6,231 bases of DNA from a virus (taxonomy: Duplodnaviria; Heunggongvirae; Uroviricota; Caudoviricetes): IMG/VR virus record IMGVR_UViG_3300029711_000132. One strand, 5' to 3'. The translations under genes were made by a program, and so were the position numbers. Numbering within the stretch: the stretch's first letter is position 1; every line of letters starts with the position of its first letter. Under the pieces are notes generated by a model. It was not told where the DNA came from. It saw only the letters and a program-made list of their open reading frames with translations, and did not search any database. Positions 1 through 5,815 of the stretch are shown in pieces.

Positions 1-30
1 TTTTTCCTCTGCTGTAAATGTTCGTCTCAT
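1..30 (-). CDS. insI: IS30 transposase, first 10 codons only (MRRTFTAEEK...), truncated by the window edge
   Basis: ATG at 30..28 on the minus strand, 62 nt inside the IS30 end; translation MRRTFTAEEK matches my recollection of the IS30 transposase N-terminus. Confidence 0.7.
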   Translation of the reverse strand, partial: MRRTFTAEEK

Positions 31-92
31 TCAAAAAACCTCCGCAACCCCATGTTTTCACATAACTGTTGCGTTGACCAATTGAATCTACA
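1..92 (-). mobile_element. IS30, left end only (element continues beyond the window start)
   Basis: Minus strand of 92..1 reads TGTAGATTCAATTGGTCAACGCAACAGTTATGTGAAAACATGGGGTTGCGGAGGTTTTTTGAATGAGACGAACATTTACAGCAGAGGAAAAA, which I recognise as the IS30 terminal inverted repeat followed by the start of its transposase gene. Recognition is from memory, not a search. Confidence 0.8.
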
Positions 93-343
93 GCGGCTTT
101 TTTTAATATGTCCCGTTCGTCGGTAACCCGTTTCAGCTCTTTCTGGAGACGGCGGATCTCGGCCTGAGCATCTGACTGTTCTTTATTAGTGGAAGAATCC
201 GGACCGTACTTCTTTATCCAGGCATAAAGGCTGTGGGTGGTGATATCGAGACGTGTTGCAACGCTGGCAACAGAATAACCGCGATCAACAACCTGTTTGA
301 CTGCTTCAGTTTTAAACTCTTCGGGATAACGCTTACCGCTCAT
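93..343 (-). pseudogene. IS3-family orfA (HTH transposase subunit), truncated by the IS30 insertion
   Basis: ATG at 343..341; translation MSGKRYPEEFKTEAVKQVVDRGYSVASVATRLDITTHSLYAWIKKYGPDSSTNKEQSDAQAEIRRLQKELKRVTDERDILKKAA has the IS3-family OrfA architecture (HTH then leucine-zipper-like region). The A-run slippery motif (A AAA AAA G) sits at 98-105, immediately before the IS30 junction. The native OrfA C-terminus and the orfB transposase are absent from the window. Confidence 0.7.
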
Positions 344-647: not shown

Positions 648-1142
648 TCATTTCCAATTGCAAGACTGTGAAATTTTTTCCACAACCTTATCAATCTCAG
701 ACAAGTCAAACTCAACTACTTGCATAGTTGATCCATAAGGTTCAAACCCAAAAATAGCTTTTTTATGCTTAGCCAAGGTCTTTATAAATTGTATTGGTTG
801 TGGAACAAATGCAGAATCACCGCCTTCCCCACCTCCCCAAACACTCTTGACCGGCTTTCCGCCATCTAACCGCACTGTAATTCTTGGGTTGTCCGACCCC
901 ATATAATCATTGAATGATAAATAGGCATCTGTTTTGTTATCACTACAACGCAACACCAGTGAAGTTGCACGATCAGTACCTGCTTTGTTATATGAATCTG
1001 GTGATAAATTAAGAGCCACAAAGTCAGTCTGGTCAGTCATTTTATTTATCTCAGACTTTGTTATCCACGGCCCTAACTTCTCTACACCAGCATTTGCTGT
1101 AAACGAGGCACTTATGACAAAGGCTAAAATAAATTTTCTCAT
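648..1142 (-). CDS. Secreted/periplasmic hypothetical protein (164 aa) with Sec signal peptide; accessory gene downstream of ren
   Basis: ORF with AAGGAG Shine-Dalgarno about 8 nt upstream of the ATG at 1142. N-terminus MRKFILAFVISASFTANA|GVEK is a classic signal peptide with an A-x-A cleavage motif. Two Cys (66 and 162) could form a periplasmic disulfide; Gly-rich segment WGGGEGGDS. Own terminator downstream. I do not recognise the family. Confidence 0.75.
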   Translation of the reverse strand: MRKFILAFVISASFTANAGVEKLGPWITKSEINKMTDQTDFVALNLSPDSYNKAGTDRATSLVLRCSDNKTDAYLSFNDYMGSDNPRITVRLDGGKPVKSVWGGGEGGDSAFVPQPIQFIKTLAKHKKAIFGFEPYGSTMQVVEFDLSEIDKVVEKISQSCNWK

Positions 1143-1288: not shown

Positions 1289-1462
1289 TTAAACAAACGT
1301 TCGCCAGACCTTACCATCAATGACCAGGATTCCTGCCCGCGCCATTTTTGCCGCAGCCTGATTTATGCTGGTTAATGTCATACCTGTTGTCGCAGCAACG
1401 TCCGGCGCACAGAAGCTCTTGTGCGTCTCCAGATAATGAATAATTGCCTCTTTGCCCGTCAT
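1289..1462 (-). CDS. ren: Ren-like protein, truncated and divergent at the C-terminus (57 aa)
   Basis: ATG overlaps the P stop (GTATGAC). Translation MTGKEAIIHYLETHKSFCAPDVAATTGMTLTSINQAAAKMARAGILVIDGKVWRTFV* tracks lambda Ren (96 aa) up to KVWRT, then ends. Too short to appear in the supplied ORF track. Confidence 0.6.
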   Translation of the reverse strand: MTGKEAIIHYLETHKSFCAPDVAATTGMTLTSINQAAAKMARAGILVIDGKVWRTFV

Positions 1463-2163
1463 ACAGTTGCTCCTTTCAGTCCGAACTTCGCTTTGATTTC
1501 TGCGATCTTCGCCAGAGCCTGTGCACGATTTAGAGGTCTACCGCCCATGACAGGAAGTTGTTTTACTGGTTCAGGTATCGCCTCACCACGGTTAATTCGC
1601 GCGGTCATACAAGTCAGTTCATCGGCAGCCTTGCGCCGTAATTCCGCATCAGTCAGCGCATTGGCCCGCATGTTCTGATACAGGTTGGTAACCAACCAGT
1701 AGTGCGCGTTTGATTTCCATGGATAAGACTCTGCATCCGGATAAAGGCCACGCTTCCGGCAATACTCGTAAACCATATCAACCAGCTCGCTGGCGTTTGG
1801 CAGCCCGGCGTTAACGGATGCTTCTTCCCGGCACCAGGCGACAAACTGCCCGGGTGATGGCAGGAATGGTCGATTCTGCCGACGGGCTACGCGCATTCCT
1901 GCGTTAACCTGTTCCATTGTGGTGATCCCGTTTTCCCGGANNNNNNNNNNNNNNNNNNNNNNNNNNNNNNNNNNNNNNNNNNNNNNNNNNNNNNTAGCCA
2001 GGCTCGCCGGGAAAGTTGCCAGTAACTGGCTGAACACACCGTTGATGATCTGCGCTACCTGCTGTACCTGCGGCTTTTCGTCGTACTGTTCCGGCATGTT
2101 GTTGGCGATCCGGCGCATCTGCTCACGGTCAAAGTTAACCATCTGTGCGGCGATGTTTTTCAT
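1459..2163 (-). CDS. P: Replication protein P (DnaB helicase loader), lambda type
   Basis: Translation MKNIAAQMVNFDREQMRRIANNMPEQYDEKPQVQQVAQIINGVFSQLLATFPASLA...KAKFGLKGATV is essentially the lambda P sequence as I recall it. Start overlaps the O stop (ATGA). The N gap at 1941-1994 preserves frame length, but the 18-19 residues there are unknown. Confidence 0.93.
   Translation of the reverse strand: MKNIAAQMVNFDREQMRRIANNMPEQYDEKPQVQQVAQIINGVFSQLLATFPASLAXXXXXXXXXXXXXXXXXXXRENGITTMEQVNAGMRVARRQNRPFLPSPGQFVAWCREEASVNAGLPNASELVDMVYEYCRKRGLYPDAESYPWKSNAHYWLVTNLYQNMRANALTDAELRRKAADELTCMTARINRGEAIPEPVKQLPVMGGRPLNRAQALAKIAEIKAKFGLKGATV
1941..1994. other. Run of 54 N (assembly gap or masked bases) inside the P gene
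   Basis: Directly visible in the sequence. Confidence 0.99.
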
Positions 2164-3089
2164 AAATCCACCCCGTAAATCCAGTCAGTGTTTGTCAGGT
2201 CGAGTTTTGATTTTCCGGCTGTCACGCCAGCCTGTTGCTTGTTACGGTTGATTTCGAGTTGGGTCCACTTGTCGCGGAGTTTGGCCGGACTCAGCACGTT
2301 ACCTGACCAGAAGTTGTCCTGGCATGCCCAGCGGAACAGCACGCACATGTCGCGGTGGTTACGTCCGTCACGTTCACGCATCAGGCGGATATCGTTAGCC
2401 CACCCTGCAAAATTCGGTTTTCTGGCTGAGGGCGCGATGGTCTTCACCATGTCAAACATCCACTCTGCGGCGGTCAGGTCTTCTGCTGTCCCCCACTTGC
2501 TGCCGCTCTGAATTGCAGCATCCCGTTTCTCCACAGGAAAGTCGTTTTCTGGCTGGTCAGAGGATTCGCCAGAATTCTCGGACGAAAAAGGTTTTATATT
2601 GTCTTTTGTTAGTTTGTCTTTTGTGTTTACCTGATTCGGGTAAGTGCCTTTACCTGATTTGGGTAAACTTTTCTTACCTGATTCAGGTAAATTTACCTCT
2701 TTCAGGTAAACTTTATTTTTCTTACCTGATTCGGGTAATGTTGACCATTCACTGACCACATTATTAATGCCGATATTCCGCCCGCTCTGAATAAAAATCC
2801 CACGCTTTACCAGAACACTTTTTGCAGCAGAACACTTGTGCGGCAATATCCCGGTCAACTCGGAAAGTTGCTCGTTGCTCACCCAATCCAGTTTTTTATT
2901 AAAGCCATATGTTTTGCGCATGACAGCCAGGAAGACCAGAAGCTGGTGCTGTGTTAATCCGGCCAGCATCACAGCTTCCAGCAACTCATTTGCAATGCGC
3001 GTATAACCATCATCGAGATCTGCCACGCGCGGCTCCTTTTGTGCCGCATCCGGCACTGGAAAATTGAATATCTCAGCAGTGTTTGCCAT
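2160..3089 (-). CDS. O: O-family replication initiator (N-terminal iteron-binding domain, C-terminal P-recruiting domain)
   Basis: C-terminus ...KSKLDLTNTDWIYGVDL matches the lambda O C-terminus; N-terminus MANTAEIFNFPV...ADLDDGYTRIANELLEA...LRKTYGFNK aligns with lambda O MTNTAKILNFGR...ADLDDGYARLSNMLLEA. Start chosen at ATG 3089 (RBS GGGAGG 4-5 nt upstream), which aligns with the lambda O start. The longer ORF from 3179 overlaps the upstream stop as ATGA and cannot be excluded. Confidence 0.85.
   Translation of the reverse strand: MANTAEIFNFPVPDAAQKEPRVADLDDGYTRIANELLEAVMLAGLTQHQLLVFLAVMRKTYGFNKKLDWVSNEQLSELTGILPHKCSAAKSVLVKRGIFIQSGRNIGINNVVSEWSTLPESGKKNKVYLKEVNLPESGKKSLPKSGKGTYPNQVNTKDKLTKDNIKPFSSENSGESSDQPENDFPVEKRDAAIQSGSKWGTAEDLTAAEWMFDMVKTIAPSARKPNFAGWANDIRLMRERDGRNHRDMCVLFRWACQDNFWSGNVLSPAKLRDKWTQLEINRNKQQAGVTAGKSKLDLTNTDWIYGVDL
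2627..2738. repeat. Replication origin iterons: five copies of TTACC-N7-GGTAA inside O, with an adjacent AT-rich stretch (about 2585-2626)
   Basis: Copies at 2627-2643, 2650-2666, 2674-2690, 2693-2709 and 2722-2738 (e.g. TTACCTGATTCGGGTAA), each an inverted repeat. The AT-rich run GGTTTTATATTGTCTTTTGTTAGTTTGTCTTTTGTG follows on the downstream side in the direction of O transcription, as in lambda ori. The repeats encode the reiterated LPESGKK/LPKSGKG linker of O. Confidence 0.85.
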
Positions 3090-3175
3090 AATTCCTCCCG
3101 CAATGAGTGTGTTACGATTTGCACCTGAAAGTCGGTTCTGTTCCAGCAGACCGGCTTTCGCCATTTCTGAACCTG

Positions 3176-3715
3176 TCATATCGCCCCCAGCATGGTAGTA
3201 ACCATCGCCATCAATGGACCAGCCAGATCCGGGTCCACACGAAACATCGACACAATACCTTCACTCATTTCCTTCAGTTTCTGGTGGCGTGGTGCGTTGA
3301 GAATGACAGCCTGTTTTGCCTCACTGAGTTCCTTTTCCATTTCAGCCAACCTAGCCATGAAGCTATCCTGCTCAACCAGGTAACCGCGATATTCCAGCGG
3401 TAGTACCGCCAGAATTGCCGGGGTCAGTTCACGCACGTTATTTCGGTATTTTTCAGAATCGAATTTGTTATCGAGGAAGCGGAACAGCTTCTGGCGTGCA
3501 CGGCTGACATCATCAGGGAAATCGATGGTGCCGTCGCCCTGCTCCCGATACTCATTCACAATGAGTGCGGCAACGACATCCTGATTATCTACAGCCGACC
3601 AGGCGCGGACGGCATCACGGATTTTTTCGTGGCCTGGAGCTTGTTTTGTTTGAGAACGATTTATCACCGCAGTCGGAATAAATTCGCTAGTCTGTTGGTA
3701 TGTAAGTGGTTGCAT
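3176..3715 (-). CDS. YdaT-family protein in the cII position (putative lysis-lysogeny regulator)
   Basis: 179-aa ORF with strong RBS AAGGAG 6 nt upstream of the ATG at 3715, lying between cro and O where lambda has cII. No similarity to lambda CII; the segment LTPAILAVLPLEYRGYLVEQDSFMARLAE resembles what I recall of Rac/CP-933P YdaT. Family call is from memory and needs an HMM check. Confidence 0.7.
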   Translation of the reverse strand: MQPLTYQQTSEFIPTAVINRSQTKQAPGHEKIRDAVRAWSAVDNQDVVAALIVNEYREQGDGTIDFPDDVSRARQKLFRFLDNKFDSEKYRNNVRELTPAILAVLPLEYRGYLVEQDSFMARLAEMEKELSEAKQAVILNAPRHQKLKEMSEGIVSMFRVDPDLAGPLMAMVTTMLGAI

Positions 3716-3759
3716 AATTGACTCCTTTAGTTTGAATTGACTGTTAAGTTGATTGCTTA

Positions 3760-3772
3760 TTGTTAAAGAGCG
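3760..3772 (-). promoter_or_regulatory. boxA-like element (nutR position) in the cro-ydaT intergenic region
   Basis: Minus strand reads CGCTCTTTAACAA, 13 nt after the cro stop. This matches the boxA consensus (lambda CGCTCTTA; rrn TGCTCTTTAACAA) at the location where lambda carries nutR. No convincing boxB hairpin was found next to it. Confidence 0.35.
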
Positions 3773-3784
3773 TGAAATGGAAAT

Positions 3785-4015
3785 TTAAGCTGCGTTCTTT
3801 TCGGTGTGTGGAAACAACTTCGGAAGATCCGGACGAATCTGGTATGCCTTCACAACTCCACCAGTAGCCGTAACAATGCTGCCGACATGTTCAGGGGATA
3901 CCTTTGCTTTGTTGTGAAGCCACTTATAGACGGCCTGCTGTGAAACTTCGCAGGCATCGCCTAGTTTCTTTTGTGAACCAACGATATTGATCGCTGTTTT
4001 GATTGCTGGGTTCAT
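3785..4015 (-). CDS. cro: Cro-like small HTH regulator (Cro/CI-type, YdaS-like)
   Basis: 76-aa ORF transcribed divergently from the repressor gene, first gene of the early-right operon. GGAGG sits just upstream of the ATG. Sequence LGDACEVSQQAVYKWL is a helix-turn-helix signature. Confidence 0.8.
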   Translation of the reverse strand: MNPAIKTAINIVGSQKKLGDACEVSQQAVYKWLHNKAKVSPEHVGSIVTATGGVVKAYQIRPDLPKLFPHTEKNAA

Positions 4016-4119
4016 AACAACCTCCGCGGTTAATCCGAATCAAGATTAAAACTATGGTTGTTTTTAGTCAACAACCATTTTCGTTTGATGAAATAAAACC
4101 TTGGTTGTACATTTGATCT
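4016..4119. promoter_or_regulatory. OR-like divergent operator/promoter region between cro and cI
   Basis: Inverted repeat ATGGTTGTT-N7-AACAACCAT (4044-4068) plus a related half-site CTTGGTTGTACA (about 4099-4110). Candidate pR on the minus strand: -35 TTGACT (4061..4056). Candidate pRM on the plus strand: -35 TTGATG (4085-4090), 17-nt spacer, -10 TACATT (4108-4113), ending 7 nt before the cI ATG with no Shine-Dalgarno, i.e. a possibly leaderless cI mRNA as in lambda. Confidence 0.55.
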
Positions 4120-4809
4120 ATGAAAACAACACTCTCAGAAAGACTTAAAGAAGCCAGATTAGCGCGAGGCCTTACACAAAAGGCGCTTGGGGATTTGGTC
4201 GGGGTTAGCCAGGCTGCTATTCAGAAAATCGAAACAGGGAAAGCTAACCAAACAACTAAAATCGTGGAGATCGCGAACGCTTTGGGTGTACGCGCAGAAT
4301 GGTTATCTTCTGGCGTTGGAAATATGTCAGACAGTACAGTGCAACCAATACAATCAACTGTCAGCCATTCCAAATACTTCAAAATTGACGTTCTTGATAT
4401 AGAAGTCAGTGCCGGGCCAGGTGTAATCAACCGTGAGTTTGTAGAAGTTCTACGCTCGGTTGAGTACTCGTTTGACGATGCTCGTCACATGTTCGATGGC
4501 AGGAAGGCGGAAAATATCCGCATCATTAACGTGCGAGGTGACAGCATGTCAGGGACGATCGAACCAGGTGACCTGCTGTTCGTTGATATCACTGTTAAAT
4601 CTTTCGACGGTGATGGCATCTATGCGTTTCTGTACGACGACACTGCCCATGTAAAACGTCTTCAAATGATGAAGGATAAGCTGCTGGTTATCTCTGATAA
4701 CAAGAGCTACTCGCCGTGGGACCCGATCGAGAAAGACGAGATGAACCGGGTGTTCATATTCGGTAAGGTCATTGGAAGCATGCCGCAGACGTACAGGAAG
4801 CATGGTTAA
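4120..4809 (+). CDS. cI: CI-like prophage repressor (N-terminal HTH, C-terminal LexA/S24-type autocleavage domain)
   Basis: 229-aa ORF. N-terminus LTQKALGDLVGVSQAAIQKIETGK is an HTH; Ala-Gly candidate cleavage site in EVSAGPG (residues 98-99); catalytic Ser in RGDSMSGTIEPGD and Lys in AHVKRL. Divergent from cro across the operator region. Confidence 0.9.
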   Translation: MKTTLSERLKEARLARGLTQKALGDLVGVSQAAIQKIETGKANQTTKIVEIANALGVRAEWLSSGVGNMSDSTVQPIQSTVSHSKYFKIDVLDIEVSAGPGVINREFVEVLRSVEYSFDDARHMFDGRKAENIRIINVRGDSMSGTIEPGDLLFVDITVKSFDGDGIYAFLYDDTAHVKRLQMMKDKLLVISDNKSYSPWDPIEKDEMNRVFIFGKVIGSMPQTYRKHG

Positions 4810-5038: not shown

Positions 5039-5419
5039 ATGAGAAAAATCCTAATCGCTGCCATGATGGCATCTGTATTGGCTGGGTGTGCTTCTTCAGG
5101 CAACCAGCAACTCAAAAATGAAACTGAAATTAGTGTCCAGTCTAAACTTCAGGAAGGTAAAACAACCAAGAATGAGGTTAAATCTTACTTTGGTTCTCCT
5201 GATGCTGTTTCATATACTGACAGTGGAAACGAGATCTGGAAGTACGCCTTTGCAAAAGTAAAAGTGAATGGCACCACTTTTATTCCATTCTATGGATTAT
5301 TCCATAATGGAACGAACGGTACGAAAAAAGAACTTACTATTCTTTTTAACGATGACACGATTAAGAAATACACAATGTCAGAAACCCAAATAAACTCGAA
5401 ATCAGGTTGGGCTGACTGA
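5039..5419 (+). CDS. Predicted outer-membrane lipoprotein with BamE-like (SmpA/OmlA-type) domain; accessory gene in the rex position downstream of cI
   Basis: 126-aa ORF. N-terminus MRKILIAAMMASVLAGC has a lipobox (LAGC, Cys17) with Ala at +2, predicting outer-membrane sorting. Mature part EGKTTKNEVKSYFGSPDAVSYTDSGNEIWKY...KKELTILFNDDTIKKY parallels the E. coli BamE pattern GMTQQQVAYALGTPL...NTWFYVF...QQTLTLTFNSSGVL as I recall it. Weak RBS (GGAA about 8 nt upstream); strong terminator downstream. Confidence 0.8.
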   Translation: MRKILIAAMMASVLAGCASSGNQQLKNETEISVQSKLQEGKTTKNEVKSYFGSPDAVSYTDSGNEIWKYAFAKVKVNGTTFIPFYGLFHNGTNGTKKELTILFNDDTIKKYTMSETQINSKSGWAD

Positions 5420-5455: not shown

Positions 5456-5565
5456 CTCCCCCTCATAACTCATACCGTCCAAAAAACCACCACACCTCAC
5501 TTCAGTTATCGCTATGCGATGCAAGTCACAAAATAAATCCATCCTAAATACAACCAGTTATATTA

Positions 5566-5622
5566 AAAACAACCGATAAAACAACTTTTGTTGTTGACGA
5601 TAAAACAACTATAGTTTTAAAT
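5566..5622 (+). promoter_or_regulatory. OL/pL-like operator-promoter cluster
   Basis: Three direct AAAACAAC copies (5566, 5578, 5602) and a palindrome ACAAC-TTTT-GTTGT (5581-5594) share the ACAAC/GTTGT core of the OR half-sites. Candidate promoter: -35 TTGACG (5594-5599), 17-nt spacer, -10 TTAAAT (5617-5622), pointing rightward away from cI as lambda pL does. Confidence 0.4.
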
Positions 5623-5815
5623 AAATTCATCGCAACGACACAACGATACGATAACCACCTGTTTCACCGTTGCGATGACCGCTTAGATCCGCAGTTTGAA
5701 TTTCAGCAGGCTTCGGGGAGTGCGAGGGGTGAAACGGACGCGTGAACGTCGGTGTGACCAGCTGAAATCAACTCAACATTTCATACCTTAGTCGCTTCAA
5801 CGAGGCGGCTTAGTT

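Follow-up and report, generated by a model that had tools for sequence, protein, structure and literature searches.

The window examined here is the whole of a 6,231-nucleotide (nt) stretch of viral DNA (Caudoviricetes; IMG/VR record IMGVR_UViG_3300029711_000132) and covers the immunity and replication genes of a lambdoid (pro)phage common in Escherichia coli. The gene between cro and O encodes a 179-amino-acid (aa) protein which, judged from its sequence, is an ordinary phi80-type (YdaT-family) CII regulator. The operator and promoter of this regulator probably consist of an inverted repeat at 3650-3667, inside its own coding region, and a -10-like hexamer, TAGTCT, at 3688-3693; together these would form an equivalent of the repressor-establishment promoter (PRE), starting near position 3700. 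A pair of direct repeats, AATTGACT, in the spacer between cro and cII had previously been put forward as the operator. They are most likely an incidental feature of the spacer of this immunity type.

YdaT boxes read TTGATT-N6-AATCAA in CP-933P and ATGATT-N6-AATCAA in Rac (PMC9986795, PMC11879457). In the window the canonical box has no match with two or fewer mismatches, and the 12 matches with three mismatches are scattered, including one at 3749-3766 which lacks the dyad core. When relatives were scanned with the canonical box, matches recurred at gene positions +45/+48, and the pattern NTGAT(A/T)-N8-TCA(R) was found there in nearly all of the 66 or more loci. The window gene carries the dyad GTGATAAATCGTTCTCAA (gene strand) at +49 to +66, with a TGA-N10-TCA core. 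At the level of sequence, an inverted repeat of the family type is therefore present at the 5' end of the gene. The half-sites are kept despite changes in the encoded peptide (MINRAQ, LIFENQ, LISQNQ, MIYQNR and others) and the 6-base-pair (bp) centre varies. With a score constrained by the core, 55 matches fell in the 0 to +50 bin, against 0-3 in any other 50-bp bin over about 240 kb.

Synonymous positions were compared across 52 distinct genes aligned by codon. Third-position entropy is lowest in the six codons from codon 16 onward (0.70, compared to a mean of 1.35 for the gene). Isoleucine 18 is encoded by the rare codon ATA in 48 of the 52 genes (50 encode Ile at all), whereas ATC and ATT predominate in the other Ile columns. 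Codon 21 ends in T in 51/52 genes, although six different residues are encoded (A, S, N, F, D, Y).

The second element, TAGTCT, is antisense to codons 8-10 and is separated from the dyad by 20 nt. The hexamer TANNNT is present at this place in all 51 homologues compared, with T1, A2 and T6 fixed. On the gene strand, codon 9 ends in T in 51/51 despite its varying residue (N/S/D/T/I), codon 10 invariably starts with A and codon 8 invariably has A in its second position; these are the very bases that make up T1, A2 and T6 on the opposite strand. The distance from box to TANNNT is exactly 20 nt in 10 out of 10 lineages, and among the other offsets between 10 and 31 two had one match each (background frequency of TANNNT: 0.008 per position). 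Only the length of this spacer is conserved, not its sequence. The hexamer at offset 20 is TATGAT in Rac of E. coli MG1655 (TTGATTTTCATGAATCAT, 20 nt, TATGAT), in a CP-933P-like phage and in Klebsiella phage Kp4865-4, TAGCAT in Klebsiella phage ST405-OXA48phi1.2, TATTAT in Citrobacter phage Chris1 and TAACAT in Aeromonas phage pAEv1818. The -35 position of the window reads CACCGC (3665-3670), with no -35-like hexamer. If the start is taken at 3700, as the geometry suggests, the box would be centred at -41.5. In most homologues the antisense strand of codons 6-7 also carries a nucleotide-conserved, half-site-like TTGATA, a short way downstream of the -10-like hexamer; its counterpart in the window is TTGGTA, at about 3695-3700 (plus strand).

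Frozen bases in a coding sequence may have other causes. Codons 8-10 and 17-22 might be held by a constraint on the mRNA or its translation, such as the rare ATA codon or a small GCGAU-GAUAA-AUCGC hairpin, or they might form a pure autorepression or roadblock site and not an antisense promoter. In many homologues the segment GCGATGATAAATCGC can fold into a hairpin of 5 bp, selection can favour rare codons near 5' ends, and binding within the gene would also hinder transcription from pR. However, the hairpin is disrupted in AAC variants and does not include the invariant TCA, and the fixed positions of the second element coincide exactly with T1, A2 and T6 of a sigma-70 -10 hexamer on the opposite strand. 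Moreover, the box followed after 20 nt by TAnnnT persists in Rac, a CP-933P-like phage and Klebsiella phage L086, where it lies in a different gene and reading frame. An explanation by mRNA constraint or roadblock is for these reasons unlikely.

An overprinted promoter would work as follows. The 179-aa protein would bind the inverted-repeat YdaT box in its own codons 17-22 and recruit RNA polymerase in class-II fashion, from a box centred at -41.5 and with no -35. The resulting activator-dependent plus-strand transcript would run from about 3700 toward cI, crossing the cII start and the 69-bp spacer, passing antisense through cro and entering cI (4120), whose repressor is the presumed beneficiary. 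The AATTGACT repeats would be part of the transcript leader, at about +17 to +43, without an operator role; on the other strand they are in the translation-initiation region of cII. With the promoter inside the activator gene, activator and target would travel together as one recombination module, and the cro/cI module would be exchanged at the ATG. The general idea of the original prediction, a regulator that targets the 5' end of its own gene and a plus-strand promoter reading antisense through cro toward cI, is retained here, but the specific elements it named are not. The start it placed at 3765-3780 is displaced to about 3700 by the better-supported box and -10, which lie 50-65 bp further leftward, within the gene.

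Several points weigh against the promoter proposed here. The box of the window is degenerate (TTGAGA...TATCAC), agreeing with the strict canonical box at 8 of 12 positions, although the TGA/TCA core and its flanks are intact. Some of the INR.Q conservation might stem from a constraint on the protein. Since the homologues share descent, the conservation counts within the phi80-type subfamily do not represent independent events. In the literature, activation in Rac is credited to a predicted promoter, PracR4, about 190 bp from the box (PMC11879457), and the putative PRE of CP-933P is described as upstream of the box (PMC8630535). The available parts of these two papers give no mapping of the Rac and CP-933P promoter starts under YdaT induction, and the Rac reporter fragment contains the box-proximal TATGAT (PMC11879457). 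Lastly, a non-random cluster of same-strand TTGANT motifs in the spacer, described below, is not accounted for.

The arrangement might extend to the whole family, from Escherichia to Aeromonas phages. PRE would then be a class-II promoter with its box at -41.5 and TAnnnT at 20 nt, overprinted on the first 22 codons of the activator or, in Rac and CP-933P, on the 3' end of ydaS; the chances of this appear to be about even. If it holds family-wide, the disordered tail of phi80-type CII would be essentially translated promoter DNA, and the published assignments of PracR4 in Rac and of a box-upstream PRE in CP-933P would need revising.

The identity of the regulator agrees with what had been claimed for it, namely that it belongs to the YdaT family and is not similar to lambda cII. 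A profile search returned PF06254 (YdaT_toxin) with an E-value of 1.3e-29 and 102.9 bits against a cut-off of 21. This was the sole Pfam match at E <= 0.01, and at that threshold none of the lambda-CII Pfam models matched the open reading frame (ORF). The protein also matches PHROG 163, "CII-like transcriptional activator" (E 1.8e-66); no NCBIfam model matches it, and the RefSeq label for the gene is "toxin YdaT domain-containing protein". It is 65.6% identical to phi80 cII over its full length, about 66% identical to CII of mEp237 and 51-52% identical to CII of HK639 and HK225. Membership of the lambda CII family was considered and rejected, as YdaT_toxin is the only Pfam family found and TTGC repeats are lacking: no lambda-type TTGC-N6-TTGC with one mismatch or fewer occurs between 3100 and 4200.

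The YdaT structures 8bt1 and 3c4r are matched distantly by sequence (E about 1e-3) in an alignment that spans the recognition helix, where QKLFRFLD of the window protein pairs with QKIFRWLD. Arginine 79 is invariant in 22 homologues and corresponds to Arg60 of CP-933P YdaT and R57 of Rac YdaT. The recognition-helix arginine contacts guanine in CP-933P YdaT (PMC9986795), and R57 of Rac is likewise the base-contacting arginine of that helix (PMC11879457). The segment RQKLFR(F)LDN of the recognition helix is invariant across the subfamily. An AlphaFold2 (AF2) model built with the 22 homologues has a predicted local distance difference test (pLDDT) score of 73, with helices from residue 29 on and a pLDDT below 50 for residues 1-25. 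When the model was compared to the PDB using Foldseek, the top five matches were chains of 3c4r and 8bt1 (probability 1.0, target-normalised template-modelling score 0.64-0.66, 27-28% identity), and the next match had an E-value above 1. In the model, long helices follow a POU-like helix-turn-helix domain; the protein is presumably tetrameric. The N-terminal tail of phi80-type proteins, 25 residues long and predicted to be disordered, has oddly invariant residues I18, N19, R20 and Q22.

That such proteins are CII regulators is already known. CII of phi80 is the textbook case and phage records annotate the gene as cII. The role of YdaT as a CII analogue was shown in CP-933P and Rac (PMC8630535, PMC9986795, PMC11879457), and Jurenas et al. 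had noted the homology to phi80 CII (PMC5917428). A type II toxin-antitoxin pair was also considered and does not fit, the YdaS/YdaT pair being embedded in a cI-cro-cII-O-P region; the toxin-antitoxin reading of YdaS/YdaT has been rejected in the literature (PMC5917428, PMC8630535).

The direct repeats exist as had been described. AATTGACT is present exactly twice in the window, with copies 19 bp apart, although this spacing corresponds to about 1.8 helical turns and not to the approximately two turns that had been given. The repeats were said to overlap the start of the gene, but both copies are inside the 69-bp cro/cII intergenic region (3716-3784). Copy 1 abuts the ATG (3715-3713) and consists of the final 2 nt of the Shine-Dalgarno sequence and the stretch between that sequence and the start codon. 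Copy 2 lies upstream of the Shine-Dalgarno sequence (GGAG, 3725-3722), and the gene-strand reading of the region is ...ACAGTCAATTCAAACTAAAGGAGTCAATTATG. Because the repeats are intergenic, they do not correspond in relative position to the CII sites of lambda, which are within cII, contrary to the original prediction. Their occurrence is only slightly surprising (p about 0.05-0.15). Among random 69-mers of matching composition, 4.7% (mononucleotide shuffle) to 15% (first-order Markov) contain an exact direct repeat of 8 nt without overlap, and about three exact 8-mer repeat pairs with a spacing of 8-30 bp are expected per window by chance.

Comparison with related loci indicates that the AATTGACT repeats are part of the cro (immunity) module and not of the cII module. 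In one alternative arrangement, here called type B, the same cII (94-97% identical in nucleotides and 95.5-97% in amino acids) follows a different cro. It was found in 11 phages and in up to about 700 complete E. coli genomes. The type B spacer is 30 bp long (AGTCATTGCCTTATCAGTTAACGCCGCAG...) and does not contain AATTGACT, and the homology of type B loci to the window ends exactly at the ATG. The spacer sequence of the window was recovered only in six phages which share its cro. In strain LD91-1, copy 1 is changed to AATTGATT and 12 bp are inserted after copy 2. No repeats were found in 66 loci from Enterobacteriaceae species of other genera (proteins 39-74% identical), in which the cro-cII spacer is usually 2-30 bp and often 2 bp long.

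These distributions bear directly on the proposal that the two repeats are a YdaT-like operator flanking the -35 of a plus-strand PRE-type promoter with a start at about 3765-3780. The copies are exact and located between cro and cII, each holds TTGACT (5/6 of both the -35 consensus and the TTGATT half-site), and lambda CII does use direct repeats. However, the repeats are missing where a 95.5-97% identical protein sits behind a different cro and from the 66 other loci, most of which have spacers too short to fit them, and the natural allele in LD91-1 alters both copy 1 and the spacing. As the recognition-helix segment is invariant, the DNA target should be common to these proteins, and the repeats cannot be that target. 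YdaT is a tetramer with 222 symmetry which binds inverted repeats, and its authors contrast this with the direct repeats of lambda CII (PMC9986795, PMC11879457). Neither TTGACT is followed by an acceptable -10: a promoter using TTGACT as its -35 was rejected, the sole hexamer at 18 nt being TGTTAA, which lacks A2 and T6. A scan of 3500-4200 for sigma-70 and terminator consensus sequences detected nothing in the spacer, and its sole plus-strand promoter match, within cro (3849-3877), was at the chance rate. Taken together with a chance probability of 0.05-0.15, this makes an operator built of the AATTGACT repeats very improbable. On inspection the repeats do not fit integration host factor (IHF) sites, DnaA boxes, CI/Cro operators or a local duplication either.

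The same spacer contains four TTGANT motifs on one strand, at 3718, 3732, 3737 and 3749 (p 5e-5 to 5e-3, for a pattern picked post hoc). The last, TTGATT at 3749-3754, is a perfect canonical half-site within the sequence 3749-3766 of Table 1, and 20 nt after that sequence there is AAGCTG and not TAnnnT. The cluster could serve as auxiliary low-affinity half-sites, comparable to OL and OR flanking OM in CP-933P, which would tune PRE or block read-through from pR; such a role would be confined to this immunity type. In the LD91-1 allele copy 1 becomes TTGATT, the canonical half-site; the footprint of CP-933P YdaT extends over 95 nt of incomplete repeats (PMC9986795); and ANTCAA occurs six times on the sense strand of other long spacers, where about one is expected. 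Part of this recurrence, however, comes from a common leader before the Shine-Dalgarno sequence and does not represent independent sites. The four motifs share one orientation and have no dyad partners, lie downstream of the predicted start at a distance of 51-100 bp from the box, and are not conserved with the gene. An auxiliary role is therefore doubtful, and the dyad with its -10-like hexamer is preferred as the target of the regulator.

A boxA-like sequence, CGCTCTTTAACA, is also found in the spacer, and no second boxA (nutL) was detected in the window. The spacer holds no boxB hairpin or tR1-like terminator, and its mRNA strand is predicted to be unstructured (z +0.36). Sites similar to nutR are present in the same spacer of two relatives, L032 (lambda-type boxA + GCCCTGAAAAAGGGC) and L024. 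No N-like gene was identified in the window.

In one type B relative (L001) the start codon of cro lies within a perfect YdaT box, TTGATTTGTCATTATCAA (3363-3380), and the corresponding site has two mismatches in another (L002). The vicinity of pR and cro in the window, unlike that in these relatives, has no box-like site. By analogy with Rac YdaT in the racR-ydaS region, this suggests that CII also acts at pR in type B immunity.

The features of the window are listed in Table 1. The rightward operon on the minus strand has the order cro (YdaS-type), cII (YdaT/phi80-type), O and P, with the repressor gene divergent, and the cII stop and O start share an ATGA (3176-3179). Identity to this region reaches 97-99% in Escherichia phages PhiR26_1, PhiR34_1, IdasGreatGrand, PhiR5_1 and PhiR47_2, whose genes carry the annotations cI, Cro, cII and O; the cro-cII-O order is repeated in the phage records so annotated. 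A 461-bp probe comprising cro, the spacer and the cII 5' end matched 1513 of 5426 complete E. coli genomes at a coverage of at least 80%.

Table 1. Coordinates of genes and sequence elements in the 6,231-nt window.
Feature	Position	Strand	Remarks
P	1459-2163	-	PF06992
O	2160-3179	-	PF04492
phi80-type cII (YdaT family), 179 aa	3176-3715	-	PF06254; PHROG 163; phi80 cII identity; AF2/Foldseek
YdaT-box-like dyad, candidate operator	3650-3667	.	TTGAGAACGATTTATCAC on + strand; codons 17-22 (VINRSQ)
Spacer between box and hexamer, 20 nt	3668-3687	+	
-10-like hexamer TAGTCT (TAnnnT)	3688-3693	+	antisense to codons 8-10
Predicted start of PRE-like transcript	3699-3701	+	placed by geometry; +1 = 3700 puts box centre at -41.5
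AATTGACT copy 1	3716-3723	+	reads AGTCAATT on gene strand
AATTGACT copy 2	3735-3742	+	
TTGATT-GCTTAT-TGTTAA	3749-3766	+	perfect canonical YdaT half-site, without dyad partner
boxA-like CGCTCTTTAACA	3761-3772	-	13 nt past cro stop, in rightward mRNA; sole close match in window
cro-like gene, YdaS family	3785-4015	-	PF15943, 61.5 bits; PHROG 35
cI-type repressor (helix-turn-helix + S24 peptidase)	4120-4809	+	PF00717, PF01381; PHROG 4; divergent from cII

Around the repressor gene, a pRM-like TTGATG-17-TACATT was found by inspection at 4085-4122 (plus strand). Its start would be the A of the cI ATG (4120), which would make the cI mRNA leaderless, as in lambda cI and paaR2 of CP-933P. OR- and OL-type operator sets with ACAAC/GTTGT half-sites (e.g. 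AACAACTTTTGTTGTT) are found at 4047-4110 and 5560-5610 and are unrelated to the AATTGACT repeats. An ORF at 5039-5419 (plus strand), in the rex position between cI and OL, encodes a lipoprotein with a weak likeness to BamE. Downstream of pL/OL and before a kil-like ORF there is a GC-rich, strongly structured leader (5627-5800, plus strand; minimum free energy -66 kcal/mol, z -2.2), which has no Rfam match and could be put-like or terminator-rich. No Rfam family matched anywhere in the window at E <= 1.

On the replication side, tandem iterons within O (2599-2720; TTACCTGATT, TTCAGGTAAA and others) represent the expected lambda-type origin. A run of 54 N at 1941-1994, within P, is masked sequence or an assembly gap. 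An ORF of 57 aa (1289-1462, minus strand) is at the position of ren, and another ORF (648-1142, minus strand) encodes a signal-peptide protein with a weak likeness to VasI, below the Pfam cut-off. At the left edge of the window a truncated orfA transposase of the IS3 family (2-343, minus strand; PF01527, E 3e-19) marks an insertion sequence downstream of the replication region.

The observation from which this analysis started carries little weight in itself, since YdaT-type CII was already annotated and the repeats are probably irrelevant. Only the embedded architecture of box and -10 may be new. It provides a concrete candidate operator and promoter for a regulator that roughly 40% of complete E. 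coli genomes encode and that RefSeq labels "toxin". It could also account for the joint of recombination between immunity and cII at the exact ATG, with activator and promoter forming an inseparable module. In addition, it would bring three experimentally studied and differently interpreted systems, phi80, Rac and CP-933P, under one promoter geometry.

Among these systems phi80 is the closest. Its CII (like the annotated CII of mEp237, HK639 and HK225; PHROG 163) is encoded between cro and the replication genes, as in the window, and has the same N-terminal tail. The phi80 gene has a box at +48 (ATGATAAACCGCGCTCAA), followed after 20 nt by TATTGT. The cro/cI module and spacer of phi80 differ from those of the window. 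In phi80 and HK639 cII is followed by a gap with the oop-like M3 RNA, whereas in the window cII overlaps O, which leaves no room for an antisense RNA of the oop/M3 type. No published description of the phi80 PRE or CII site was found in the literature searched.

CP-933P YdaT (8bt1/3c4r) belongs to the same Pfam family and has the same fold as the window protein, but is only about 27-28% identical to it. Its operator is an inverted repeat at the gene 5' end, and it activates a leftward PRE-like promoter (PMC9986795, PMC8630535). At a 95%-identical phage copy of this gene, TATGAT follows the box after 20 nt. CP-933P YdaT lacks the 25-residue N-terminal tail and its box accordingly covers the start codon together with the end of ydaS, whereas the box of the window is in codons 17-22 and is more degenerate. 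Rac YdaT of E. coli K-12 likewise lacks the tail of phi80-type proteins; its box, ATGATT-CATGAA-AATCAA, is at the start of ydaT, with TATGAT exactly 20 nt away. Leftward activation toward the repressor gene was shown for Rac YdaT, which additionally binds between racR and ydaS and at host rcsA (PMC11879457), in contrast to the window, where the vicinity of pR has no such box. Lambda CII and its PRE share the place on the map and the logic with the system proposed here: a missing -35, a position at the 5' end of the activator's own gene and a transcript antisense to cro that enters cI. However, lambda CII belongs to an unrelated family and recognises direct TTGC-N6-TTGC repeats, whereas the putative site in the window is a dyad.

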